NCBI RefSeq assembly: GCF_030028105.1
Contig: NC_092401.1
Location: 29,626,399 to 29,690,398 of the forward strand
Reading direction: 5' to 3'
From: Mobula birostris
Taxonomy: Eukaryota
Length of the DNA: 64,000 bases
Made by a program: the position numbers and the translations under genes. The notes beneath the pieces were generated by a model. It saw only the letters and a program-made list of their open reading frames with translations. It made no database searches and had not been told where the DNA came from. Positions 18,530-60,504 of the stretch are shown here, in pieces; the stretch's first letter is position 1, and each line of letters starts with the position of its first letter.

Positions 18530-18800
18530 ACCTTCCACTTCTCTGTTGGTCCGCTCTCCTGTTAAGATTACTCTTTGTTTAGCCCTTTACCTCTTCCACC
18601 GAACCCCACCCAGCTTTACGTCATCCTCCTTGCCCCTCACCTACCACCTACCGAGCTTGTACTCCCCCAGCTCTCCCTATTTTGGCTTTTGCTCCCTTCC
18701 TTTCCAGTCCGATGAGGAGCTTCGGCCCGAAACGTCGACTGTTCATTATCATAGGTGATGCCTGATTTCCTGAGTCCCTCCAGCATTCTGCTCATGTTGG
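18530..18800 (+). repeat. Pyrimidine-rich repeat ending in a hammerhead-like motif and family tail
   Basis: cagtc-c(t)gatga-ggagcttcggccc-gaaac-gtc-gactg at 18705-18741, then gatgcctga..ctgagtccctccagcatt. Confidence 0.7.
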
Positions 18801-18884
18801 GCAAAATCTGCAAACCAATTTACAGAATTTGAGAAAAATGATGTAAACAAAATTTAGACACAGCAGTAGAGTTTTGCAGTTAAC

Positions 18885-19620
18885 GCCCATGACGGGCACA
18901 AGTACCGCCCCGCGACTCAACCCAATTTACTCTGACGTCATCGATTCAACGTCATCCATTGCACATGACGACCAACATGCCCCGACCCCGGCGCTGAGGG
19001 GTCCCGCCTCCCTCCCAGCTACCAATCAGACAAGAAGCAGCTCCGGGTGTGCAAGCGGAACCCGCCTACCCCTCTGCCTTGTGATTGGTCCCTTCCTTCG
19101 ATTGAGCGGCGGAGACCGCGGGGAATGGTCATTCGGACCTTCAATCAGCCAAGCCTTCGCCCAGTGGGAAGCAGGTTAGTGCGAATGGGACGGGCAAGAT
19201 GTCGATGTTGACGGGTTGCGCGCCGACGGTATCGAGCTGGTGATGCCCTGTCACGGGGAGCGCCAGTCCAACACTAAATGGAATTTTAATTATTAAAACT
19301 CTTATTGGGCGATTTAACGATGGGAAACTGTTTCAAGTCGCAGACGGGCGACGACGTCTCGCTGTTAAATGACTCGGCGAGTTACGCCGGAGATGGAGCG
19401 GACGGCGAAGCCGCCGGGCCTGGGTCTCGGTCCGGGGCTGCCCTGCATAGGCCGCCGGCGGCCTCGCCACCAGAGCAGGTCGGTGTGCCGTCGGACAGAC
19501 TCACGGGATGTGCATTCACATATCGCCGGGCACGTCCCTCTCGGCGCACGCATGCTGTGCAGACCGGCCCTAGGCTGGGGCCGTCGCCACGCAGGACCGG
19601 TCTGCACAACATGATTCCAT
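18885..19620 (+). promoter_or_regulatory. CpG island / promoter of the RNF11-like gene
   Basis: Sharp rise in GC and CpG against a CpG-depleted background. GC box CCGCCC 18905, CCAAT 18922 and 19022, ATTGG 19084, full CRE TGACGTCA 18933-18940. Confidence 0.8.
19320..19478 (+). CDS. RNF11: RNF11-like RING-H2 protein, coding exon 1 (53 codons)
   Basis: ATG at 19320 in strong context (acgATGG). Encodes MGNCFKSQTGDDVSLLNDS...PPEQ, matching the RNF11 N-terminus (MGNC acylation motif, DDxSLL dileucine). Donor CAG|gtcggt at 19479, phase 0. May be a paralog rather than the strict ortholog. Confidence 0.9.
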
Positions 19621-20584
19621 AATAAATGTCGTGATCATGGCCAAGTGAAAGGGGTCAGTGTGGAGGTTCAGCAAGGACGTGGTGGGTCTCTGCTATATGA
19701 CCTCAACGGCAGTCACATTTAGGTACTGTCGTCTATGAAGTAGTACCCTGGATTTTCAGGCATCTGTGACAGACAGTGTAGCAGACACTTGCACCTTTAT
19801 TATCTTAAACCTCTGAGTTAGGTTGGTGGGAGAGCTGACTGTTGGAGAAACTGTCTGTCATACCATGATAATGTGTTGTCAGCTCTCAGCAGAAAGACCA
19901 TAGACGCAAATATTTATTGAAGACACCAGCTGTAGACTTTCTACATTCTGATTAAAGTACAAAAATATAAGCCAGTTATTTGTAATACCAGAAGAGGTTT
20001 GGGAAAGTAATTGATAGCACCAGATGAAGAACTTGTATTTCTGCTTTATGCTTCATCAGCAACTCCCCAAGTCACAGTAAAGACGTGAAGTATGGCTCAT
20101 ATTTGCTGGATTTGGTCCAAAGTGTATGAGTCTGGGTTTCTTGATAGGATGGATGAAGATATCTCTTTATGGCAGTATCCTGAAATTAAAGGGTTGCCCA
20201 TTTCAGGTAAAGATGAGGTGATTTTTTTTTCTCCCATACAGTTGTGAATATTTGATACTTACAGAATCAGTTAATGTTGCACCTCTTTAAAACCTTGGTT
20301 AGACCACACTTGAAGCACTGTGTTCAGTTCTGGTTCCCTCACTACAGAAAGGATGTGGAAGCTTTAGAGAGGGTGCGGAGGAGTTTTACCTGGATACTGT
20401 CTGCATTAGAGAGTATGTCTTATGAAGATAAGTTGAGCAAGCTAGGGCTAGTTGGCACAAAGGCAGTTGAGAGGTGACTTATTAGATTTGTACAGGATAA
20501 GAGGATTCAACCCCATTTCGCTGGTTAAAGCGATGAGGGAGATTGAAATATCGAGGCGAATGCAGAATGTCACCTACCAGCTGT

Positions 20585-20770
20585 TTGATCACTGATGGAT
20601 CAGTCGGCTACCGGAGAGGGGAGTCAGCCTTTTGATTGCTGGTGGAATTGCTCTGCTGACAGAGAGGGGAGACGGTCTTTTGATCACTGATGGATGGCTC
20701 TGCTGCCGGAGAGGGGAGACTGCTTTTTGATTGATGGTGGGATTGCTCTGCTGACGGAGAGGGAAAGGCC
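20585..20770 (+). repeat. Tandem array of four ~47-bp units (A-B-A-B)
   Basis: Units start tttgatcactgatggat / tttgattgctggtggaatt / tttgatcactgatggat / tttgattgatggtgggatt, and each ends in gagaggg. Confidence 0.8.
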
Positions 20771-23700
20771 TGCCGCTGTGCCTGGAGAACGTTACCCAGG
20801 TTTTCTGCGTTTTGGATATGGACTTGGACGATGGACATTTTTTTCAGTCTTATAATTTTTTAATTGTGTTTTTCACCCAATCTTTCTCATTTCTTTGTGT
20901 GCAGGGGAGGGGGATTTGCGGGGGGGGGGGTGTTGATCTGCCTGTTCTGTTTTTGTTTTTTAGTTCAGGAAGGGGGATTTGGGAGTTGATGATTGTGCTG
21001 CTGTTCGTTCTTGGTTTTGTGGCGATTTGGAGAAGAACAATTTCGGTGTTGTATACGTTGACAATAAATGAACTTCTGAGCCTTTGAAATGAATCCTTGA
21101 AAATGTGCATGGGGGGGCTGAGAAAAGCCTCATGAATCTCAGCACGCTGGCATACAGGCAGAGCGGGTCCCTGCAATGTCGTCAGTTCTCATGCTATTCC
21201 TGCAGGGATCCGCAGTCTTGAATGGAGGGAGTGAATTCCGCTGAACAGTAATGATTCTGGGGCTAAATGGAACTAGTGGAGATGGCTTTGACTAGGTGCA
21301 AGAGTGATTTCTGAGATGATAATGGTTCAGCTATATTGAGAGCTTCTGTGTATATATAAACTACCTTGCAAACTTCTGGTGAATTGTGCTGATAATTGCA
21401 CAATCTTGAGAAGTACTTTTCCTAACGCTAAGGTGTCTCAGGTTTAAGTCTTTATCAGATGTTAGCACATAGATATTTACACAGTACCTTTTTGAAATTC
21501 TTTTGCTGTTGTTTCTTACCTGGTGGTTTCTGATGGGTGTCTAGAGTGGCTTTAAGGTAGTGATTTAAGCACACTTGTGTCATAGGAAGGAAGTTTGGTA
21601 GGTGATTAAAAGGATTTGGATTGGAGACAAATATTCTTGATAGGAGGAATCCAGAAATTATGGTAGAAACAGTCACTTTGACCTACTGGTTTGTGCTCCA
21701 GATTAAGCTCCTCCTGTTCTGTTATTCCATCAACATTATCTATTCCCTTGTCCCTTCATGTTTATCTCAATTCCTTTTAAATACCTCTACAGGTTCAAGA
21801 TGTGCATGAGCAAAGTGGAAATGTACCACAGAAATGTTGGTGGGCATAGTTCTGAGCTATGGGTCAGTGCTTTAGGGATATAATCAGCAGAACGCACATC
21901 GTTCGTGTGAAGTAAAAGAGATGGTGAGCCGTGGTATCAGTGGAATAGATGAAAAACAAAAATGCACTTGAGCAATCAGAATTATGTATGGAACTATATC
22001 TGTAACATGACCTGCTGGCCTGGTCTCCCTGTCTGTAAGTGTAACATTCTGAACATGGATGCCTCAGTTTGCTATACAAAGAAGGATTGGTTAGAGGAAG
22101 GAGTTTAGAAAAATGAAAAGTGATCTCACTGAAATGTATCAAATGCCAGTGGATCTTGACCAGGCAAGTGTGGTGGTGATGCATTGAACTGGGGTCTTAA
22201 ATTAAGGGAATGGCCATTCAGGACTGCGATGAGAAGTTTGGGATTACCTGCCTCAGAGGCCTGTGGAGACTCGTTCACAGAGTAAACTAAAGATGGGGAT
22301 TGGGAGAGTTTTAGATATTAAATGATGTAGAAACTTGTGCTTGTTGAACTAACTATGGTATGTGCTCATCCACCTATGTGCCTTAGTTATTTCTACCAGC
22401 CTTTACATTTGACACAGCAGGGTTAGGATTACCTAAAACAGAATATCTCCAGATTCATCTTGTACAATGGAATTGTCTGAGCAGTTTAATGGCAAACGAG
22501 GCATGAGGAGTTATATGCAGGACAATAAATGAAGGGGTCTTTAGAAGTGTGGATTTGTAGAGAGACCTCTGAGTGCAAGTTGACATGGGTGGATACCGTA
22601 GTAAAGAAGTAATATAGTAAAGTAATATAGTAAAGAAGTAAATTAGTAATATTTGGTGGAGGCTTCAAATATAGGGGTGTCATGTTGCAGCCATATTTGG
22701 AGTGTGTTGTACAGTTCTGGTCAGACTGGAAGTGGTAGCAGCGGAAAGCGTGCAGGAGAGATTGATCAGAATGTGGCCTGGACTGGAAGGTTGTAGGTAT
22801 AAGGTGAGATAAACTGGGTTTATTCTCACTGAAATACATGAGCTGCTGACCTTATAGAGATTTATAAAACAATGAGATGCACAGATGAGTTGGGGAAGTG
22901 GAGAGCTGTAGGCGCAGGTTTGAGGTGAGAAGGGAGAAATTCAAAGGAGACTTAAGACAGGTTTTTCACACAGAGGTTGGTGAATATCTCAAACAAGCTG
23001 CAGATACAATTAAGTTTAAGATGTGTTTGGGACAGGTGCTTGGATTGCAAAGCGATATGGGCCTGATACAGGCAGATGGGATCAAGATTAAGATTTTAAG
23101 ATTAGCTTTATTTGTCACATGTACATTGAAATATACAGTGAGATGCGTTGTTTGCATCTCACTGTCCAATGTGCCCCCTAGTTAGGAATCATAGTCAGCA
23201 TGGATGAATTGGGCTGAAGGGCATGTTTCTGTGCCAATGGTCTGGTCTTGATTCCATTATCAATGTGAACTCTTAATGCGAACAGCCTCATTAAAATGTG
23301 TGGGAAGGCCATTGGCCTCGAGTCTGTTGTGCTAATCCACCTACACATCTTAGTTTCACTGGTTTAACATTTAATGATGCAGTGAGGTTAGGATTACCTT
23401 AGACAGAGTAACTCTATAGAGTTGTCTGGTGCAATATAATTGTTTGGGCAGTTGCAAAATAATTATAGAACTGGGCAGAGTCTGTGTGGATTCATGAAAG
23501 TAAAATCATTTGTAACAAGTCTGTTAGATGCATTTGAGGTTGGAATTAGATAAGTGGAATCGATTGTTATGTATTTGGACTTTTGGACACCATGTGAGGG
23601 GTTACTAAAATTATAATTTGCTAAAACTTCTCAGCATGTCCATAGAACAGTAGAGGGCTGAACCTACTCTACAATCAATCTTAACTCTTTGCTCCTACAT

Positions 23701-24734
23701 CGCCCTTCATTTGTGCCTATTTAAGTTTCTCAAATGTCCCTAATGTATCTGCCTCTATCACCACTTCTGGCAATGCATTCCCATGCACCCACCTCTCTCT
23801 GTGGGGGAAAGAAACCTTCCTCTGACATCACCCCTGTACTTTTCTCCAGTCACTTTATATGCCCCCTCGTATTAGCCGTTTCTGCCCTGGAAAAAAGTCT
23901 CCGGCTGTCCACTCTACATCCCTGATCATCTTTTACACCTCTATCGAGTCACCTCTCATTCTTTGTTCCAAAGTGAAAAGCCCATGTTCATGTACTTTTC
24001 TCCTGGGACTGTAATGATGTGAATTGCTGTGGCGTTGTTATCAAACTGGTGTTTGCTGTGGTCGGTCTTGCAACCACAGGCTGGTTCACGAACTTTCCAG
24101 GAATGGGATGGAGAGTGCCAGTGCCAGTCAAGGCTGTATCTGTAGTCCTTCCCCGTAAGAAGAGAGAACAACCATTTGGCTTCAATAGGATTCCCTTTCA
24201 GAGGTGACCTCTATAGTATTTCTTGTTTTTTTAAAGCTTGGGAACACAAAATGGTCACTTATTCAACCGGAAATGGCCAGACAGACCATAAAAAGAGGTT
24301 TTTGAGGCATGGTGAAACAGCTTGATGTAGTTCGTAAATATGGGAGTGACCTTTGTAAATAGCTGAAGGACTGCAAGTATGGATCAGGAAGATATAAATA
24401 AATGCTTAACCACAGGGAAGCATTGGACTGTAAGCAGACCTAGGGAAGCAGTTCTGGGTTGAGGATGGATATATAACCTTTAACATAGATGTAGTGCTCT
24501 GCTAGGAGAAAGACTATAAACTGTGTTTATACAATAAGAGGATTTATTTAGTTTATATATTTAGCGAAACTGTGGAGAAGGCCCTTTGAGCCACACCAAC
24601 CCAGTAACCCCACAACCCCAATTAACCCAAACTTAATTACAGGACAATTTACAATGATCAATTAACCTTCCTGATTTTTTTTTGGCCTGTGGGAGAAAAT
24701 GGAGCACCCAGGGGGAAACCCACATATTACATAG

Positions 24735-25796
24735 AGACATAGAAAACCTACAGTACAATACAGGCCCTTCGGCCCACAGAGTTGTGCCGAACATGTCCCT
24801 ACCTTAGAAATTATTAGGCTTACCTATAGCCCTCTATTTTACTAAGCTCCATGTACCTATCTAAAAGTCTCTTAAAAGACCTTATCGTATCCGCCTCCAC
24901 CACCGTTGCCGGCAGCCCATTCCACGCACTCACCACTCTCTGAGTAAAAAACTTACCCCCTGACATCACCTCTGTACCTACTCCCCAGCACCTTAAACCT
25001 GTGTCCTCTTGTGGCAACTATTTCAGCCCTGAGAAAAGGCTCCTGACTATCCACACGATCAATGCCTCTCATCATCTTATACACCTCTATCAGGTCACCT
25101 CTCATCCTCCGTCGCTCCGAGGAGGAAAGGCCGAGTTCATTCAACCTATTCTCATAAGGCGTGCTCCCCAATCCAGGCAACATCCTTGTAACACACACAA
25201 AAAATGCTGGTGAACGCAGCAGGCCAGGCAGCATCTATAGGAAGAGGTACAGTGGATGTTTCGGGCTGAGACCCTTCGTCAGGACTGATCCTTGTAAATC
25301 TCCTCTGCACCCTTTCTATGGCTTCCACATCCTTCCTGTAGTGAGGTGACCAGAACTGAGCAGAGTACTCCAAGTGGGGTCTGACCAGTGTCCTATATAG
25401 CTGCAACATTACATCTCGGCTCCTAAATTCAATTTCACGATTGACGAAGGCCAATACACCGTATGCTTTCTTAACCACAGAGTCAACCTGCACAGCTGCT
25501 TTGAGCATCCTATGGACTCAGACCCCAAAATCCCTCTGATCCTCCACACTGCCAAGAGCTTTACCATTAGTACTATATTCTGCCATCGTATTTGACCTAC
25601 CAAAATGAACCACTTCACACTTATCTGGGTTGAACTCCATCTGCCGCTTCTCAGCCCGGTTTTGCATCCTATCAATGTCCCGCTGTAATCTCTGACAGCC
25701 CTCCACACTATCCACAACACCCTCAACCTTTGTGTCATCAGCAAATTTACTAACCCATCCCTCCACTTCCTCATCCAGGTCATTTATAAAAATCAC
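24735..25796 (-). mobile_element. Fairly young CR1 3' fragment inserted into a V-SINE and carrying a nested short element
   Basis: KFADDTKVEG, LVRPHLEYSAQFWSPHY, FFTQRVVSAWNGLP. Host SINE halves lie at ~24590-24730 and ~25840-25925. Confidence 0.92.
25192..25287 (-). mobile_element. 96-bp hammerhead-containing short retroelement with 10-bp target-site duplication
   Basis: TSD atccttgtaa at 25182-25191 and 25288-25297. Minus strand reads CAGTC CTGACGA A GGGTCTCAGCCC GAAAC ATC CACTG ... (TG)n tail. Confidence 0.85.
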
Positions 25797-25929
25797 GGTG
25801 GAGGGGTCCTGGAACCCTTGCTCTTTGTGATTTTATATAGTCCATGGGGAAAATGTACAGAGCAGTGCTGGACTGAATTCCAAAATCCGGAACGCCTTGA
25901 GCTTTAATAGCGTTGTGCTAACCACTGGT

Positions 25930-26430
25930 CATAGTCATAGTCATACTTTATTGATCCCGGGGGAAATTGGTTTTCGTTACAGTTGCACCATAAATAATAA
26001 ATAGTAATAAAACCATAAATAGTTAAATAGTAATATGTAAATTATGCCAGTAAATTATGAAATAAGTCCAGGACCAGCCTATTGGCTCAGGGTGTCTGAC
26101 CCTCCAAGGGAGGAGTTGTAAAGTTTGATGGCCACAGGCAGGAATGACTTCCTATGACACTCTGTGTTGCATCTCGGTGGAATGAGTCTCTGGCTGAATG
26201 TACTCCTGTGCCCACCCAGTACATTCTGTTGTGGATGGGAGACATTGACCAAGATGGCATGCAACTTGGACAGCATCCTCTTTTCAGACACCACCGTGAG
26301 AGAGTCCAGTTACATCCCCACAACATCACTGATATGAATGAGTTTGTTGATTCTGTTGGTATCTGCTACCCTCAGCCTGCTGCCCCAGCTCACAACAGCA
26401 AACATGATCGCACTGGCCACCACAGACTCG
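25930..26430 (-). mobile_element. Rex-Babar-like non-LTR 3' end
   Basis: MLSKLHAILVNVSHP..STFSQRLIPPRCNTE..KSFLPVAIKLYNSS, a minus-strand AATAAA, and a (gactat)n tail at 25930-25946. Confidence 0.8.
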
Positions 26431-26822
26431 TGTGACACCATACATACTACTGTGACCCCCGATGTTGTCCATCAGATTTTAAGTGTGAAGACATGGGTGT
26501 TCTTACCGTTGAACTCTTCGTGGATTTTCTTTTCCAGAAAGGAGCGATCTGTGTTTGAATGCAGCAGGCTTTAGAAGACCAAAAGGCAAGGCAGTAAAGC
26601 TAGACCAGGTCAGAGAGCTTAATGTACATCACACGCACCCAACAGAGAGACAGAAAAAGCCGCAGGGAGACAGGAAAACAGTACACCATGGCTGAGAGTA
26701 AAAAAGAAAGGAACAGGATTTGGGAGGAGCCGAAAGACAGAAGGGCTCACACACAACAGACTGCTGTAAGTGAGAAGCAGTGGTGCGCTGCTGGCTGCAC
26801 AGGTGTGGGAGTTTGGGACAAA

Positions 26823-27470
26823 GTGATTGGGTGAGCTGATGGGGCATGGGCATGTGATTGGGTGAGCTGATGGGGCGCGGGCATGTGATTGGATGAGCGG
26901 AGGGGGCGGGGTATATAATTGAATGTGGTGACAGTAGGGGAATGACAGGGGTTATGGGGAAGCATAACTGGGTAAACCAGAAGGGGGTTGATTTATTGGG
27001 TATACCGGGTCACGGATGTTGGGTGGCTACTCGTACTGGGTCACGTGGGATGAATGATTGCGCTGACCAGGTCATGGGAGAATGAGTGATTGGACGTACT
27101 GGTTCAGGGCTGCTCAGGATGAGAGTCAGAGTGTACTTGGTCGTGGGCATGAGTGACAGGGCCTACTGGGTTGGGGGTTGGTTGTTGAGTGACTGGATCA
27201 CAAGGGAAGAGATCTTGGGCCAACTAGCTCACGGGGGAAGAATAACTGACTGAATGGGCCAACTGGCCCATGGGGGACAAATGACCGAGCAATTGGGCCA
27301 AATGGCCCACAGGGGATGAGTGACTGACCAAGCGTACCAGGGCAGGGTTCGGTTGAACTGGTTGGATGAGAAGTTGTAAATATAACTGGTGTTGGCTGGT
27401 TGGGGGAAATGAATGGACTTTGGTGAGAGGTGTACACGTGATCCATTGGAAGAGTAGGTGTGTGTCAAGG
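26823..27470 (+). repeat. G-rich degenerate minisatellite; first three units have a 31-bp period
   Basis: gtgattgggtgagctgatggggc..gggcat occurs 2-3 times, followed by many decayed tgattgg/tgactgg/tactggg units. Confidence 0.65.
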
Positions 27471-28109
27471 TATGAGGTGCTGTTAGAGTTATTGGTTTAA
27501 CATGGAATTAAAAAAATAATTGAAGGAGAAAGAATATCTAAGGAGAGGGCAATTGGACAATCTGGATTACCGCTGGGAAAGTTCCTGCAAACTATTTTTG
27601 CTCAGCACAGAATGCTGGAGAAACTCAGCAGGTTAGGCAGCATCTATGGCTCATCTGCCTATCACTTCCCACTGGGTTCCCTCCTTCTTTTCCTTTCTCT
27701 TTCTACGCTCCTCTCCTGTCAGATTCCTTCCTCTCCTGCCCTTTACCTTTCCTACCCACTTGGCTTCACCTGTCACCTTCTAGCTTCCCCTCCCCCTACC
27801 TTTTCCTGATGAAGAGTCTTGGCCCACAACATCAACATTCATTTCCATAGATGCTGCCTGACACGAGTTCCTCCATCATTTTGTGTGTGTGTGTGTGTGT
27901 TGTTTTGGATTACGAGTAACTACAGAATCTTGTGTGATCAAGTATTTTTGTGTATTCTTTTGGCAGTGGGTATTCTTGGGCCAGCTTTTGCTGCCCTAGG
28001 GAGAGTGAATGGTAGCCACCTTCTTGAACGTCTTGTCTGTCTGGGGGGGAGGGGAGGTGGGAGCTCCGTCAGTGATCTTGTGCAGGGAGTGCATGGGTTT
28101 GGACTCTTC

Positions 28110-29640
28110 CACAGCAAAGGAGCACTAAGGTGACTAGAGTGAGGGTAAGACTGATCAGGCAGAGAAGAGAAAATGTGCCTGGAGTCGGAGGAGGTAGGGA
28201 AGGTGTTTAATAAATACTTTTATTCAGTATTCACCAGTAATAGGGACTCTAATGAATGTGAGGACAATGTTGAACAAGTTCATACACTGGAACATGTCAA
28301 TGTTAAGAAAGGGGATTTGCTGGATCTAGAGGAAAAACACTAGGATAAGTAAGTCCTGGGGGCAGATGGGGTATACCTCCTGTTACTACAGAAAGTGAGG
28401 GAAGCGACTGGTGCACCTTTGGCGATCTTCTTTGTGTCCTCACTGGCCACAGGAGTAGTATCAGATGGTCGGAGGGTGGTAAATAGGATAACCCAAGGTT
28501 TATGAGCACTTAGAGAAGCAGAGTCTGATTGTAGTCAAAATGGCTTTGAGAGGGCAGGTTGTGCCTCACAAGGCTGACTGAGTACTCTGAGGATGTGACA
28601 AAACAAATTGATTAAGGTAGAGTGATAGATGTGGTGTATATGGATTATATTAAGACATTAGACAAGGATCTTTATAGTAGGATCATTCAGAAGGACAGGA
28701 AGCATGAGATCCAGGGAAACTTTGCTGTGTGGATTCAGAATTGGCTTGCACACAGAAGGCAGAGAGTGGTCAATGGAGTGTATTGTGCTTGGAGAACTGT
28801 GACCAGTGGTGGTCCACAGGGGTCTGCTCTGGAACCCTTGTTGTTTGTGATTGTTTTTATATATAATGGAATTGAATGAGGAAGGGGATGGGTGGGTTAG
28901 TAAGTTTGCAGATGAAACAGAGGGTGGTAGTGTTCTAGATATTGTGAAAGGACATTGACTGGACGCAGGGCTGGGCAGAGAAGTGGTAGATGGAATTCAA
29001 CCCAGAAAGTTTGAAGTAATTCACTTTTGAAGGTCGAACTTGAAGGCAGAAGACAGGTGTAATGACAGGATTCTTAACAACAGAAAAACAGAGGGTTCTT
29101 GGAATTCATGTCAATAGATCACTCAAAGTTGCTGTGCAAGTTGGAGTAGTTGAGGTGTATGGTGTGTTGGCCTTCATTAGTTGGGGATTGAGTTCAAGGG
29201 TTCTGAAGTAACGATGCATATAACAGTTTTATGACACACTGGTTAGACCACACTTGAAGTATTGTGTTCAGTTCTGGTTGTTTTATTTTAAGAAATATGT
29301 GGGAGCTTTTGAGAGAGTGCAGGGGAGATTTACTAGTATGCTTCCTGGATCAGAGAACATGTTGTTTGAGGACAGGTTGACTGAGCTAGGTTTGTTTGGT
29401 TTGGAACAAAGGAGGATAAGAGTGTACAAGATGCTGAGAGGCATAGATTGAATGGGCAGTCAGAGACTTCTTCTAAAGGCAGAAATTGACAATAAGAGGA
29501 GGCATAAGGTGTATGGTGTAAGCGGACTTTCGGAGATGGGTTTCTTAGACGGAGTGGTGGGTGCCTGGAACGCACTGCCAGAGGTGGTGGTGGAAACAGG
29601 TGCAAATGCACCATTTAGGAAATATTTAGACTGGCAAAGA
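28110..29640 (+). mobile_element. Decayed CR1 in RNF11-like intron 1
   Basis: WIQNWLAHRRQRVV..VTSGGPQGSALEPLLF and KYCVQFW..ERVQGRFTSMLPG. Confidence 0.85.
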
Positions 29641-30104
29641 GCTTGGTCCTCCGCTGTACTGGTCCAATCCATGCATTGAGTGCATTTCAGCATCTTCCAG
29701 ATTCATTCACGGCTCCTATCAGAAATCAAGGGCACCTGCTTCCCTCCAAGTTACATACCATGCTGATGTGGAAGAGTGTGACATAGACCATATAGGCCCT
29801 CTGGCCCATGTTGCTGTGCTGACCTTTTACCCACTCCAAGATCAGTCAAACCCTTCCCTCCCACATATTGCTTCGCTTTTCTACCATCCATGTGCCTGTC
29901 TAAGAGTCTCTTAAATGTTCCTAATATATCTGTTTCTACCACAATAACATTAAAGACTGCTTACCATATTCGTATTTGACACTCTCTAGCTTAATGATAT
30001 TTATTGTTTAGTTGCTAAAGTCTTGATAACTCAGTTAATTGATGTTGGCTTCTGAGTTTGCTATTTGCTGTGATACCTTAACAATATTTTGCTCCATGAG
30101 CCTA

Positions 30105-30890
30105 TCAACCTGTGCTAAATATACTAATGATTTGGCTTCTACAGCCATCTGTTGCAATGAATTCCACAGTGTCAGCACCCTGTGGCTAAAGAAATCCTTT
30201 CTAATCTCTGTTCTAAAGGGGCATCCCTCTATTCTGAGGTTGTCTGCTGATATCAGACTCCTTTCAATATTTAATAGTTTTCAATGAGATTCCCCCCCTT
30301 TATTCTAAACTCCAGTGAGTACAGATCCACAGCCATCAAATAATCCTAGTCCATTAACCCTTTCATTCCCAGGATAATTTTTGTGAACCTTGTCTGTCTA
30401 GAATGCCAGTACATCCTTTCTCGGATATAGGGCCCAAAACTGCTCTCAGTACTCCAGTTGCAGTCTGACCAATGCTTTATAAAGCTTCAGGATTACATTT
30501 TTGATTTTATATTCTGTTCCTCTCAAAATGAATGCTAGTGTTGCAATTGCCTTCCTTACCACTGACTCAACTTGCAAGTTAACCTTTAGGCAATCCTGTA
30601 TGAAGACCCCCAAAAACCTTGCAGCTCTGATCTCTGAATTTTCTCCCCCTTTAGAAAATACACCTTTATCTACCAAAGTGCATGACCATACACTTCCCTA
30701 CACTGTATTTCACTTTTTTGCCCATTCTCTTAATCTCTCTAAGTCCTTCTGCAGACTCCCTCTTCCACAACACTGCTTGCCCGTCTATCTATCTTCATAT
30801 CATCTGCAAACTTGGCAACAAAGCCATCAATGCCATCATCGGGATCGTTGACACATAATGTGAAAAGAAGTGGTCCTAGCACTGACTCCT
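30105..30890 (-). mobile_element. Decayed CR1
   Basis: [23 protein letters not shown] and LYKALVRLQLEY. Confidence 0.85.
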
Positions 30891-30941
30891 TCGAGCTATC
30901 AGCAGCGAACGAGGTAGGAGCTGTGGAGGGCATCTGTGGAG

Positions 30942-31040
30942 AGTCCTGATGAAGGGTCTCGGCCCAAAACGTCGGCCGTTTATTCCCCTCCATAGATGCT
31001 GTCTGACCTACTGAGCTCCTTCAGCTTTTTGTGTGTTGTT
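30942..31040 (+). repeat. Hammerhead-family short repeat just upstream of RNF11-like exon 2
   Basis: agtc-ctgatga-a-gggtctcggccc-aaaac-gtc, then the tail catagatgctgtctgacctactgagctcc..tgtgtgttg. Confidence 0.8.
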
Positions 31041-31086
31041 GGGTGAAACTCCAGGTTACCCGAGAAATTATTTCCACGTGTTTCAG

Positions 31087-31256
31087 GAGCAACCACGAGT
31101 TCCAGTTTATCACCCAACACCGAGTCAAACCCGCCTGGCAACACAGCTGACAGAGGATGAACAAATCCGAATAGCGCAGAGGCTTGGCCTAATCCAGCAC
31201 CTTCCCAAGGGCAGCTTTGACAGAGGCAAGGAAGCCCAGAGCAAGAAGATCAAAGA
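31087..31256 (+). CDS. RNF11: RNF11-like, coding exon 2 (170 nt)
   Basis: Acceptor tttcag|GAG. Encodes EQPRVPVYHPTPSQTRLATQLTEDEQIRIAQRLGLIQHLPKGSFDRGKEAQSKKIK(E), very close to the RNF11 middle region. Donor GA|gtgagt, phase 2. Confidence 0.95.
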
Positions 31257-32794
31257 GTGAGTATCCTGGTGGTTAAAAATTACTCAAACTGTTATCCCAG
31301 AGCATTCTAGGGGAGGACAAGGAGTGACTGTCCAGGTAACGACAGCTGGTGGTTAAATTACTCAGACCATGATCCCAGGGTTTATGTTGTTCTGTGGTTT
31401 CCAGGAATTTTAACTAACCAAATTATTGTCGACCATGGTATTACTGGGTTGTGATTGGTTCACTGGCAGGGGGTTACTTTTATTTAATACTTAATGACCT
31501 GTCACCAAACCTCTCCATTTTTCACCCCTCATGACCTACCATATTTATATTTATTTACAGATACAGAAAAATAACAGGCCCTTCTGACCAACAGGCCTGC
31601 ACTGTCTAAGCGCACCTTTGTGGCTAAGTAACCTATAACCCATGGAGGAAACCAAAATAGGTGGAGGATATTAAACCATGTAGTCGGGGGGAGAATGTAC
31701 AAGTTCCTTACAGATGATGGTGGGAATTGAACTTTAGCTGCTGGCACTGTAATGTGTTAACCACTCTGTTACCTGAATTTAATTTGTTTCTGGGCTGCAG
31801 ACATTTCTTGCTGCCTTTTGAGAAGCTGGTGAATCACTGTTGTCTTTATACTGCCTCATTGGGCCGTTAGGAGGAATGTCCGTTGACAATGAAGGAACGG
31901 TTTGTTTCCATGTCAGGATTGCTTGTGTCGACAGGTTCCCCTTCATCCTCCCTCATGAGATCATTCAGTCTGTCAAAGTTCAAAGTAAATTTATTATCCA
32001 GGTATGTATATGTCACGATATACTACCTTGAGATTCATTTTCTTTCAAGCATTCACAGTATAGTGAAGAAATGCAATAGAATTTATGAGAAAACATACAT
32101 AAACACTGACAAGCAATCATTATGCAAAAACAGGCAAACTGTGCAAATACAGGTCCTACAAACAATATTACATAAATAGTAAGTAAATAATACTGAGAAC
32201 GTGAGTGGTAGAGTCCTTAAAAGTGTGTCCATAGATTGTGGAATCACTTCAGAGTGATATTCCCACTCATCAGAGCAATTCCAAATTAACCCTTCCATCA
32301 CTTATTTCCCTGTCACCTGTTCTCTCTCTCTTCTGCCCATTAATACACCCACCCCCAGTTTTCCACACCCACCTTCAACAGGGGCAATGTGCACTAGCCA
32401 ATTAGTCCAGCAATCACTGCCTCTCTGGGTGGTGGCAGGAAACCCATGTAGTCACATGAAGATCATGCATACAAACTCTGCACAGAGCAGCAACTCCCAG
32501 GTGACTGGACTGGTGATACATTAGCTGTGGAGACCAGTTGGGAATGACTGATTAATATTGCTGTTTTGTAGCAGCGTTTTCATCATGTGTGAGTGTGCAG
32601 GGAGCTTCCCAGGGTGCTGTGATGTAGTAGGTAGAAGATATTCTTACAGACATGGGTAGCTTATCCAGTCTCCTGTGCATTGATGCAGCAGGTAGTGTTG
32701 CTGCCCTTCAGTTCCAGTGCCTGATAAAAGTTGTTTCTCAGTCTTTGTGTTGTTGTTGTCTTTGTTTATGGTTTTTCGTTAAATTATATTGTAT

Positions 32795-33250
32795 TTAGAG
32801 AGTATAGAACATTACAGTACAGGCCCTTAGGCCCATGTTGTTATGCCAACTTTTTAACATTGATATCTCTTCTCTCCCCCGCCCCCAATACTTTCCTCCT
32901 ATCACCTTAAAAATTATGTTCCCTTGTATTTGCCATTTCCATCCTGGGAAAAAGATTTCGGCTGTGCACTTATTATGCCTCTTTATCATCTTGTACACCT
33001 CTATCAAGTTACCTCTCATCCTCCACTGCTCCAAAGTTAAAAGCCCTAGGTTGCTCGTAAGAAATGCTCTCTAATCCTGGTAAATCTTCTCTAAAGATCC
33101 CACATCCTTCTGTAATGAGGTGACCAGAACTGAACACAATATTCCAAGTCTGACCAGAGTTTATATTTGCAGCATTTCCCTGCGGCTCGAACTCATTTCC
33201 CCAACTAACAGACCATATGTTTTCTTATCAACCCTATCAACTTGTGTGGC
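32795..33250 (-). mobile_element. CR1 3' fragment in intron 2
   Basis: RMRGNLIEVYKMIK and CR1 3' UTR. Confidence 0.75.
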
Positions 33251-34643
33251 AGGTTATTTTTCCTGTAAATGCCTGCAATAAAAAAAAATAATCTTGGGGT
33301 ATATGGTAATATAAACATTGATAATAAATTTACTTGAACTTTTACCTGGTTTCAAATCCCACATCCGCTGCTTCAGTGTGGAGCTCTTTCTCCCTTGTGG
33401 GTTTATCCTGGATATTTTAGTTTCCTCCCTCATCCAAGCTCTGTGTGGGTTGGTAGGTTAATTGGCTCCTAGTACGTGGGTGAGAGGTAGAACCTGGGGG
33501 CAGTTAATGAGAATGTGGGGAGGATAAAATGAAATCAGTGAACATGGTTATATTTTCTAAGGTATATCAGATGGGCTGAATGACCTGTTTCTGTGCTGTT
33601 TGCCTTTGGAATGATAAATTCTGAATTGGCTTCTCTACATGTTTCAGGCTGTAGTCAGATATAAAACTAAACCCGGTCCAGCCTCGGCCGGACTGAACCT
33701 CAACAGCTTTAACCTATTCCCTGATGTGACCTGACTCAACCCTAAGGCTTTTACACTATACTGTGTCCAACAACTGACCTGAGTCACTGAACATTCACGC
33801 CTCGCAGTGTCACTTGCTGTCTCCGCAGTGAGTAGTTGTCATTGCCTGTTTGTGGTACTCACGCACACAGAAAACTGATGCCCACAGAAATACCTCCCAA
33901 GCTTGGGAAGGCAACCAACCAGCTGAGCACAGCATTTCCTGGTCCGGTTGGGGCTTCCGTGTACCTATCCTGATCCAGACCCATGCAGGCCTCCAATGAG
34001 CTCAGACTCTGAACTTGGGGTTAGAACATAGAACGTAACAGCGAAGTCCAAGCACCGAAGAAGATATAAATAACTTGGAAACACAGGAGAGGTATAAGGG
34101 AAGGGGCCCAGGTGTCTATCTCTGCTGCTGTTGTTGTTCCAGGTCCCAGTGGGTTAATTCTCAAAGTACAAATGCCTGTAAATCCCTGTTTCACTAATGA
34201 CCGTAACCTTGTATTCTAGGGATGCCGACCATCCTGCTGGTGGGCACAGGGTCTCCACATTTATTCTTGGCTCTTCTTCAGAGTTTTTCTCTTCTGCAGA
34301 ATGAGGGCGATCCCTCTGGATAATTGAACTCTCCTCAATTGGGGGGGGGTGGTGTAGTCGATCTTCAGTCTTCATTCTCCTCCCCACAGTGCCCAGAGCT
34401 ATACACTCCATCCCACCAGCTGAGGTCTAATCGCTGCTTTCCAACTTTCTACCCTGTGCCTCTGCTTATAAAGCACATAATTTGGTTTGTTCCCTGTTTG
34501 TGTACACCAGCCATCTGCTCTCTGTTGTTCCATTTATATGCTAAAGTCACAGAGTATTATAGCATGGAAATAGGCCCTTTGGCCCATCTAGTCCATGCCA
34601 AACTGCTGGTTAAATAATTTTGGTGTGCTGTTTGTCCTCCCAG

Positions 34644-34815
34644 GTGTGTGATCTGTATGATGGACTTTGTGTATGGCGACCCGATCCGGTTCCTGCCGTG
34701 TATGCACATCTACCACGTGGAATGCATCGATGAGTGGCTCATGAGGTCCTTCACTTGCCCGTCATGTATGGAGCCTGTGGATGCTGCCTTGCTGTCTTCC
34801 TACAAGACCAACTGA
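34644..34815 (+). CDS. RNF11: RNF11-like, coding exon 3 (RING-H2 domain and stop)
   Basis: Acceptor ctcccag|G. Encodes CVICMMDFVYGDPIRFLPCMHIYHVECIDEWLMRSFTCPSCMEPVDAALLSSYKTN* (C3H2C3 RING). Phase matches exon 2; total CDS 501 nt = 166 aa. Too short to appear in the supplied ORF track. Confidence 0.96.
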
Positions 34816-50474: not shown

Positions 50475-50582
50475 CTATTTAACAAGAGGCCGGGTTTTGT
50501 CGTCATCACTGCACTGATGTGCTTTGTACTTCTTCACCTCTGCCATGTATTTCGCCCACGCATCTCCTCCACGTGCCTCAGC
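50475..50582 (-). CDS. TRIR: TRIR coding exon 3 (35 codons and TAG)
   Basis: Polypyrimidine acceptor ttcccag|GCT. Encodes AEARGGDAWAKYMAEVKKYKAHQCSDDDKTRPLVK*, the conserved TRIR C-terminus. Confidence 0.96.
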   Translation of the reverse strand, partial: AEARGGDAWAKYMAEVKKYKAHQCSDDDKTRPLVK

Positions 50583-59253: not shown

Positions 59254-59640
59254 CTTGGCTACCCCGGCCGCTATGCCTGCTGGGAGCACTGATAGTTCTG
59301 AAAGGAATAAATGTTAAATGAACAAAATAACCGCTCAGACACTATCCACACGCATAACTGTGTATTTTACAACGTAATGAATCCTGCAGAACCAATTTGT
59401 AAAGGGAAAAGTTGGCCAAACAGAACCCGCAAAGGATAATGGGTCGTGAAACAGTGACGGAATGTATTTTATTATAAAAATGCATTTCAGAATACTGATC
59501 CAGAAATTTGAAATACTTGAATGTTCAATTGTATGTTGATAAAGAACTACGTTAAAATTAAGAGGTATTTTAGCGAGGAGGCATGTACTGCACCAATTAA
59601 CGCTGCTGACAGGAGAAGAATGATCACGTGACGGCAGAAG
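59254..59640. promoter_or_regulatory. Compact bidirectional promoter shared by TRIR and GET3
   Basis: Divergent ATGs 387 bp apart with CpG-rich flanks. CCAAT near 59392 and 59593, palindromic E-box TCACGTGA 59624-59631, YY1-type AAGATGGCGG over both start codons. Confidence 0.85.
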
Positions 59641-59780
59641 ATGGCGGGCATGGACGAGGAGTTTGAGGACGCTATCGACGTGGAGCCGTTGGAGCCTACC
59701 CTGACCAACATTATTGAGCAGAAGTCGCTGAAATGGATCTTTGTGGGCGGCAAAGGAGGAGTAGGGAAAACCACCTGCAG
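59641..59780 (+). CDS. GET3: GET3/ASNA1 (TRC40) tail-anchored protein targeting ATPase, coding exon 1; gene continues beyond the window
   Basis: Encodes [46 protein letters not shown] with the deviant Walker [10 protein letters not shown]. Donor CAG|gtaact, phase 2. No exon 2 recognised before 64000. Confidence 0.95.
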
Positions 59781-60504
59781 GTAACTGGCTGAAGCCCCGC
59801 ACAGAATGTGCGTCTCCTGGACCCCGGCCTTCTGTCCGAGGCGGGCGGGAACCCTGATCATAAACGGTCTACGGACAGAGTGTTTTAATAAATCACCATT
59901 TATTGTCACTGACTTGTATAATATGAAATTTATTGTTTGTCGCAGCAGTGTAGTGCAACGATATAAAATTGTACAACGCACACACAATACTGCAGGCATT
60001 CATTGGGCTAGATAATGTCTGTAGACAGTTGGAGTGTCGGTTGGGATACTTTAACAGAAAAGGTATAATGTGAACCGTTCTGAAATCTGATAGTGTTGAA
60101 GTTGTTCCTTCATCATTCAATGTGGGTCTTCGGGCTCCTGTACCTCCTCTCTAATGATAGTAATGAGAAGAAAGTGTGCCTCTGACGGTATCCTTGGTGA
60201 TTGAGAGGGTTGAACCTGTTAAAAAATGGTTTGCTGTTTTCTATAAAAGCTGCCTGACCTGCTTAGTTCCTCCAGTATTTTGTGTGTTTCTTGGATTTCC
60301 AGCATTTGCAGATTTTCTTGTATTCGTGGTTATATGACAAATAAAGTGGCCACTTTATTAGATATATCTGCTCATTATATATATTTAATAAGCCAATTAT
60401 GTGGCAGCAACTCATGGTGTATAATTCTGACTCTTAAGAAAGTACTGCCCTGACATTCTTTTATTTAATAAAATACCTTGGTTGTTCGTTAGATTTTTCC
60501 CAAG

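Follow-up and report, generated by a model that had tools for sequence, protein, structure and literature searches.

The ray Mobula birostris carries an RNF11-like gene that encodes no PPxY motif and lies beside TRIR and GET3. Is it a paralog of RNF11, and has it parted from the NEDD4-family ligases? The initial annotation had read it as an ancient duplicate that is membrane-anchored, RING-competent and uncoupled from those ligases. We have analyzed the gene within a stretch of 64,000 nucleotides of contig NC_092401.1 (hereafter, the window), together with its relatives in the same genome and in protein databases.

Mammalian RNF11 is placed on endosomes by acylation and di-leucine motifs, and its PPPY (human residues 37-40) binds to WW3 in ITCH, NEDD4 and SMURF2, as described in excerpts of one study (PMC7697665). 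The same excerpts report that the RING binds UBC13 tightly and builds no chains, and they treat as unsettled whether RNF11 is mainly a HECT adaptor or an E2-sequestering RING. Excerpts of a second study (PMC3416671) describe the mammalian G2A mutant as diffuse, with its Itch association lost. No solved RNF11 structure was found, the structure search having returned 28 other RING proteins.

An intact three-exon gene lacking PPxY

The three coding exons of the gene (Table 1) have GT/AG ends and join in frame into a protein of 166 amino acids, in which PPxY and LPxY are both absent. The translation is identical, letter for letter, to the RefSeq model XP_072104631.1 (P0121, Mobula birostris). Its C3H2C3 RING was recognized as Pfam zf-RING_2 (E 4.7e-14) and, like other RNF11 proteins, it has a RING-H2 domain, Gly2/Cys4 and acidic di-leucines at both ends (DDVSLL and DAALL). 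It lacks the canonical PPxY at the end of exon 1, where SPPEQ stands instead. This agreed with the earlier description of a 166-residue RNF11-like protein that lacks PPxY and is encoded next to TRIR and GET3, and the features then listed as retained (Gly2/Cys4, DDVSLL, RING-H2, DAALL) were all present in the translated exons. The CpG island spanning exon 1a is likely the main promoter. A processed pseudogene was ruled out by the introns, the intact frame and an excess of synonymous change.

Regarding the neighbors, the minus-strand exon matches the motifs of TRIR, and the top three ESM Atlas clusters for it are all named TRIR, with scores of 0.81-0.84 that have the strength of a lead.

Table 1. 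Positions, in the window, of the RNF11a features and of the neighboring genes
Feature	Position	Strand	Description
CpG island spanning exon 1a	18900..19620	.	CpG observed/expected 1.06, GC 61%
RNF11a coding exon 1a	19320..19478	+	159 nt; Gly2/Cys4 acylation signal, DDVSLL sorting motif, Gly/Ala/Pro-rich linker; phase-0 GT donor
Decayed PY site, SPPEQ	19464..19478	+	Located by position relative to the exon 1a end
Exon 1b, alternative first coding exon	26688..26765	+	26 codons, basic/charged; tblastn against annotated isoforms
RNF11a exon 2	31087..31256	+	170 nt; second site VPVY, conserved helix TEDEQIRIAQR and the linker to the RING
Retained non-canonical VPxY site	31099..31110	+	Proposed secondary Itch site of mammalian RNF11 (excerpts of PMC3416671)
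RNF11a exon 3, coding part	34644..34815	+	172 nt; RING-H2 and C-terminal DAALL
TRIR last coding exon (convergent neighbor)	50478..50582	-	ESM Atlas, motif match
GET3/ASNA1 frame with P-loop (neighbor)	59632..59781	+	ArsA_ATPase E 6e-05, slightly under the cut-off; single exon

Decay of the PPxY motif in elasmobranchs

We have compared the motif site in RNF11a, the branch of the family to which the ray protein belongs (see below), and in canonical RNF11. Of the bony-vertebrate RNF11a rows, 81 of 86 contain PPxY, as do 57 of 60 canonical rows, against 2 of 22 chondrichthyan RNF11a rows; these counts are descriptions and not independent trials, with related rows and isoforms included and one coreless bony row dropped. 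The five bony exceptions consist of two alternative models from species with PPPY in another model, one LPPY, the PPPD of Crotalus tigris and one odd model. The rattlesnake entry (P0111) differs from the PPPY of C. adamanteus, and its PPPD reflects either a separate loss or an error in the sequence.

Among the chondrichthyan rows, PPxY is kept by the chimaera (PPIY) and Heptranchias (PPLY). SPLY is found in seven, all galeomorph, and the tyrosine is missing from the other 13, namely 9/9 batoids, 3 carcharhiniform rows and Pristiophorus. At the end of exon 1, the ray SPPEQ thus aligns with PPPYQ in canonical RNF11 and SPLYQ in several sharks. None of the 22 rows has lost Gly2, Cys4, the acidic di-leucine, [VI]PVY or DAALL. 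For counting losses we have used the standard shark-ray phylogeny, which our own protein tree does not resolve. On that phylogeny, the tyrosine would have been lost at least three times, and the Pro-to-Ser change could represent two events, or one followed by a reversal. Judged from these sequences, the PPxY of RNF11a has decayed stepwise in elasmobranchs.

Since PPPY is kept in bony RNF11a, the motif must have been lost later, within elasmobranchs. The loss is not a trait of the paralog: PY loss as its founding trait is ruled out by the bony proteins, the chimaera and Heptranchias. By eye, and among the matches listed, many invertebrate RNF11 relatives are also without PPxY and others have it; given those without, the motif may be readily lost, and to little effect.

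The PPxY being the handle of canonical RNF11 for NEDD4-type ligases, RNF11a is likely a weak binder. “Uncoupled” is too strong a term, because the VPxY is kept and mammalian Y40A still binds Itch weakly. Y40A also keeps part of the NF-kB inhibition (24%, versus about 75%; PMC3416671), which tells against reading RNF11a as a weak binder. It could be argued that RNF11a is still coupled to the NEDD4 family through VPVY (and SPLY in many sharks), its affinity being little changed and the two copies largely redundant. The presence of [VI]PVY in 22/22 chondrichthyan rows and of SPLY in 7/22 speaks for this, as do the mammalian mutants described in excerpts of two studies: PY mutation leaves residual ubiquitination by ITCH (PMC7697665), and Y40A co-precipitates Itch at a reduced level, VPxY being proposed as the second site (PMC3416671). 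However, those excerpts call the WW/PPxY interaction the main mode (PMC7697665, PMC3416671), and Y40A is unable to antagonize SMURF2 (PMC7697665). Moreover, 81 of the 86 bony RNF11a rows hold PPxY despite also having the second site. We consider largely unchanged coupling unlikely.

An alternative first exon conserved in chondrichthyans

Intron 1 contains a second candidate first coding exon, exon 1b. Its ATG stands in a good context, its frame is open for 26 codons and ends at a phase-0 GTAAGT donor, and it has no Gly2/Cys4, di-leucine or PY. In tblastn, six other chondrichthyan proteins have an annotated isoform that matches it, and the chimaera isoform P0220 also matches; this N-terminus is shared by minor isoforms annotated in Hemitrygon, Hypanus, Chiloscyllium, two Scyliorhinus, Carcharodon and the chimaera, and it is on these database models that expression of exon 1b rests. 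The exon is single-copy in the genome, has the same length in 8/8 sequences and shares 15/26 residues between ray and chimaera. An exon 1b profile matched only those 7 of the 391 proteins compared, with no bony-vertebrate protein among them. Upstream of exon 1b, an in-frame ATG (window 26622-26687) adds 22 codons in myliobatiform rays only, and the extended exon is 79-81% identical over 48 amino acids to the Hemitrygon and Hypanus models.

Exon 1b is predicted to give rise to a second isoform that is soluble and not acylated, shares the RING and has no N-terminal sorting signals. The designation “membrane-anchored” hence holds for the exon-1a isoform, with its Gly2/Cys4 signal, and not for the conserved exon 1b isoform.

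The second isoform added by exon 1b could also fit a scheme in which RNF11a is a new competitor of canonical RNF11, occupying GGA/AP-2 adaptors and UBC13 on endosomes without HECT delivery, the tyrosine loss having been selected. The disappearance of the tyrosine from three groups (9 batoids, 3 carcharhiniform rows and Pristiophorus), with all else kept, is what such selection would produce, but relaxed selection equally predicts repeated loss in a fast-changing, low-complexity linker. We regard selected competition as quite improbable.

RNF11a is an old paralog in a duplicated chromosome block

Among the matches listed, those nearest to the ray protein bear the names “RING finger protein 11a” or “11-like” and come from rays, sharks and the coelacanth, the sharks and the coelacanth sharing the NCBI name RNF11a. 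The members of its cluster also include zebrafish rnf11a, Xenopus rnf11.2, turtles, lizards, snakes and the chimaera. The main tree was built from 38 rows, using the N-terminal 18 residues plus the core and excluding the variable linker and the motif; Varroa (long branch) and the hagfish (no N-terminus) were left out. In this tree, the split between 24 RNF11a rows and 12 canonical rows has a support of 96/94, and chondrichthyan and bony RNF11a reach 97/93 each. The core-only tree of 40 rows gave the same split at 81/83. The ray protein thus groups with zebrafish rnf11a (NP_957315.1), Xenopus rnf11.2 (NP_001006833.1) and the turtle and lizard copies (reptile “RNF11-like”), all of which keep PPPY, unlike the ray protein, and it stands apart from canonical RNF11. 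The canonical rows of the chimaera, sharks and a turtle and a mammalian-type Logan row do not differ in the columns kept, and the canonical (11b) rows form no rooted clade, so the trees support the split only. With no rooted 11b clade in any tree and no firm placement of the hagfish row, the timing relative to the genome doublings rests on synteny.

Both RNF11 copies occur in the chimaera, sharks, teleosts, frogs and reptiles, which makes the duplication older than the gnathostome split; RNF11a likely stems from vertebrate genome doubling. Presence in sharks, frogs and reptiles also ruled out a teleost-specific duplicate. No bird, crocodile or mammal row with RNF11a features was found among the 120 listed of 201 and 120 listed of 835 matches or among the listed cluster members, suggesting that RNF11a is absent from these groups. 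One exon-3-like fragment, P0334, has RNF11a-type residues of the sauropsid kind and could be the RNF11a of a lineage lacking an annotated one, e.g., birds or crocodiles.

The reading as an ancient paralog was thus upheld, the gene being neither the sole RNF11 of its genome nor grouped with canonical RNF11. As a discovery it does not stand, since it is already named RNF11a or rnf11.2 and is present in teleosts, the coelacanth, frogs, turtles and squamates.

We have searched the ray genome with each RNF11a exon, and each search led to one other RNF11-like locus, on contig C16; for exon 3, 11 of the 13 matches were RING-only similarity (39-52%). The initial annotation had proposed looking for a second, PPxY-bearing RNF11, and the C16 copy is one: its exon 1 ends in EPPPPYQ, and its joined protein of 153 amino acids shares 152 of 153 residues with shark RNF11b. 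The two ray genes have three exons with the same phases and are 77% identical in exon 2 and 93% in exon 3 (RING-H2). Over the 56 codons compared in exon 2, 15 are identical, 28 differ synonymously only and 13 carry replacements, a pattern consistent with long purifying selection on RNF11a. No match to the exon 1b profile was found in 30 kb across intron 1 of the C16 copy, in contrast to RNF11a.

As had been supposed, both loci belong to chromosome blocks that are duplicated. Five multi-copy families (JUN, NFI, HOOK, TTC39, bestrophin) were picked beforehand for comparing C16 with the contig of the window (C37), and four of them (JUN, NFI, HOOK, TTC39) have members on both. In the search of the ray's own genome, bestrophins were found on C37 and C13 only and not on C16. 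Bestrophin and HOOK genes lie 0.13-0.3 Mb beyond the window genes on C37. The C16 copy has a TTC39 gene, a neighbor of RNF11 in human too, at a distance of about 35 kb. There are four NFI genes on four contigs, as fits two genome doublings. The human regions on 1p (RNF11) and 19p (TRIR/GET3) form a paralogon, and RNF11a is not known from the human TRIR/GET3 locus.

Two further observations concern C37 outside the window. A TTC39-family gene at C37:29014817-29074452 is one of four TTC39 loci (C1, C16, C21, C37); mammals have three main TTC39 members, and the C37 gene may be another duplicate absent from them. DHPS and a transportin-like gene, near neighbors of TRIR in human, are together at C37:8591153-8710178, 21 Mb from TRIR-GET3, so that the human gene order is kept on one side only. 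There may be a rearrangement breakpoint near RNF11a.

These data also bear on whether the chondrichthyan copy arose from a duplication of its own and is not an orthologue of zebrafish rnf11a. The core-only support for a single RNF11a group is moderate (81/83), and both RNF11a groups are fast relative to near-invariant 11b, which might lead to their mutual attraction in the tree. Against this, support reaches 96/94 once the N-terminal block is added, RNF11a sits in a block with NFI, HOOK, JUN and TTC39 duplicates, and NCBI names the shark copies 11a. A separate origin is very improbable.

Micro-exon search and transcripts

Intron 1 contains five PPxY-coding runs, above the shuffled sequences (mean 0.77, maximum 4 in 100 shuffles). 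Three of the five are in repeats, four have no acceptor or donor in phase, and the sites of the fifth are weak; none of the five is thus a PY micro-exon with convincing in-phase splice sites. A Logan contig of 1,104 nt (P0129) encodes a complete skate RNF11a whose junction is likewise PY-less and, by its shortness, is most simply a spliced transcript. Although these intronic runs and the annotated cassette exon at the exon 1-2 junction of lamniform sharks might suggest a gene-model artefact, with real transcripts carrying a PY micro-exon, this can be set aside as scarcely credible, given the poor splice sites, a lamniform cassette without PY, the agreement of 20 database models with one short spliced contig on the PY-less junction, and a decayed motif visible in place at the exon 1 end.

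In sequencing runs, 22 match part of the 3' end, 18 of them guessed to be RNA. Contigs from four runs over 18800-32000 were mostly intronic repeats and left exon 1a uncovered, and the 19478-31087 joint was not found among the 15 listed of 533. A high-copy repeat cluster in intron 1 (window 24500-26700) dominates these run-derived contigs. The lamniform cassette comprises 22 residues between exons 1 and 2 in the Carcharodon and Cetorhinus models (P0007, P0236, P0237), and no good match to it was found in the window.

Discussion

We favor, with a probability of roughly 0.68, the reading that RNF11a is an RNF11 duplicate predating the split of cartilaginous and bony vertebrates, that its PPxY has decayed in sharks and rays, and that it is likely an endosomal RING-H2 adaptor, a weak NEDD4-family binder and mainly an E2-binding RING. 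This reading builds on the paralogy, the duplicated blocks, the elasmobranch-limited motif decay and the intact acylation, di-leucine and RING features documented above. By analogy with mammalian RNF11, the exon-1a isoform would be myristoylated and palmitoylated, sorted to endosomes via AP-2/GGA, and longer-lived owing to less ubiquitination by HECT ligases; PY mutation stabilizes mammalian RNF11 (PMC7697665). The ray protein would still bind UbcH5/UBC13 and would retain residual WW binding via VPVY. In such a division of labor, the role of HECT adaptor would fall to the near-invariant C16 copy, and the motif of RNF11a would have been freed.

A bolder proposal, speculative and on the whole rather unlikely, is that cartilaginous fish RNF11a would brake K63-ubiquitin signaling independently of HECT ligases, in two forms made from two promoters. 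One would supply an acylated endosomal form that has shed its PY repeatedly, and the other a soluble/nuclear form with a basic, chondrichthyan-specific N-terminus of 26 residues conserved since the chimaera split; both would be natural separation-of-function variants.

Ray RNF11a has in common with mammalian RNF11 the Gly2/Cys4, the acidic di-leucines at both ends, the VPxY, the helix and the RING-H2; it differs in having no PPPY, a longer Gly/Ala/Pro linker and a different chromosome. A parallel is provided by Bmp16, described in excerpts of PMC6395752 as a “cryptic” ohnolog missing from mammals: like RNF11a, it is an ancient duplicate found in cartilaginous fish and others, and it evolves faster than its sister. 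Bmp16 belongs to an unrelated family, whereas the divergence of RNF11a consists of the loss of one short linear motif and an alternative N-terminus.

Our literature search, which missed most subscription journals, found no account of RNF11a history, motif decay or exon 1b. The gene itself is already annotated; what is new is the stepwise motif decay in elasmobranchs and the conserved anchor-less exon 1b. The initial interpretation is thus supported in part, and the case is one of real but modest paralog divergence. With the gene already annotated and one family affected, its general impact is limited. For that family, the fish “rnf11a/b” pair is older than the teleost duplication. Within one gene there is a series in which PPxY is kept, turned into SPxY or deprived of its tyrosine, and in which the anchor is lost, the rest of the frame being conserved. 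This natural series shows a PY-independent function kept by selection, and its variants are ready for testing that function.
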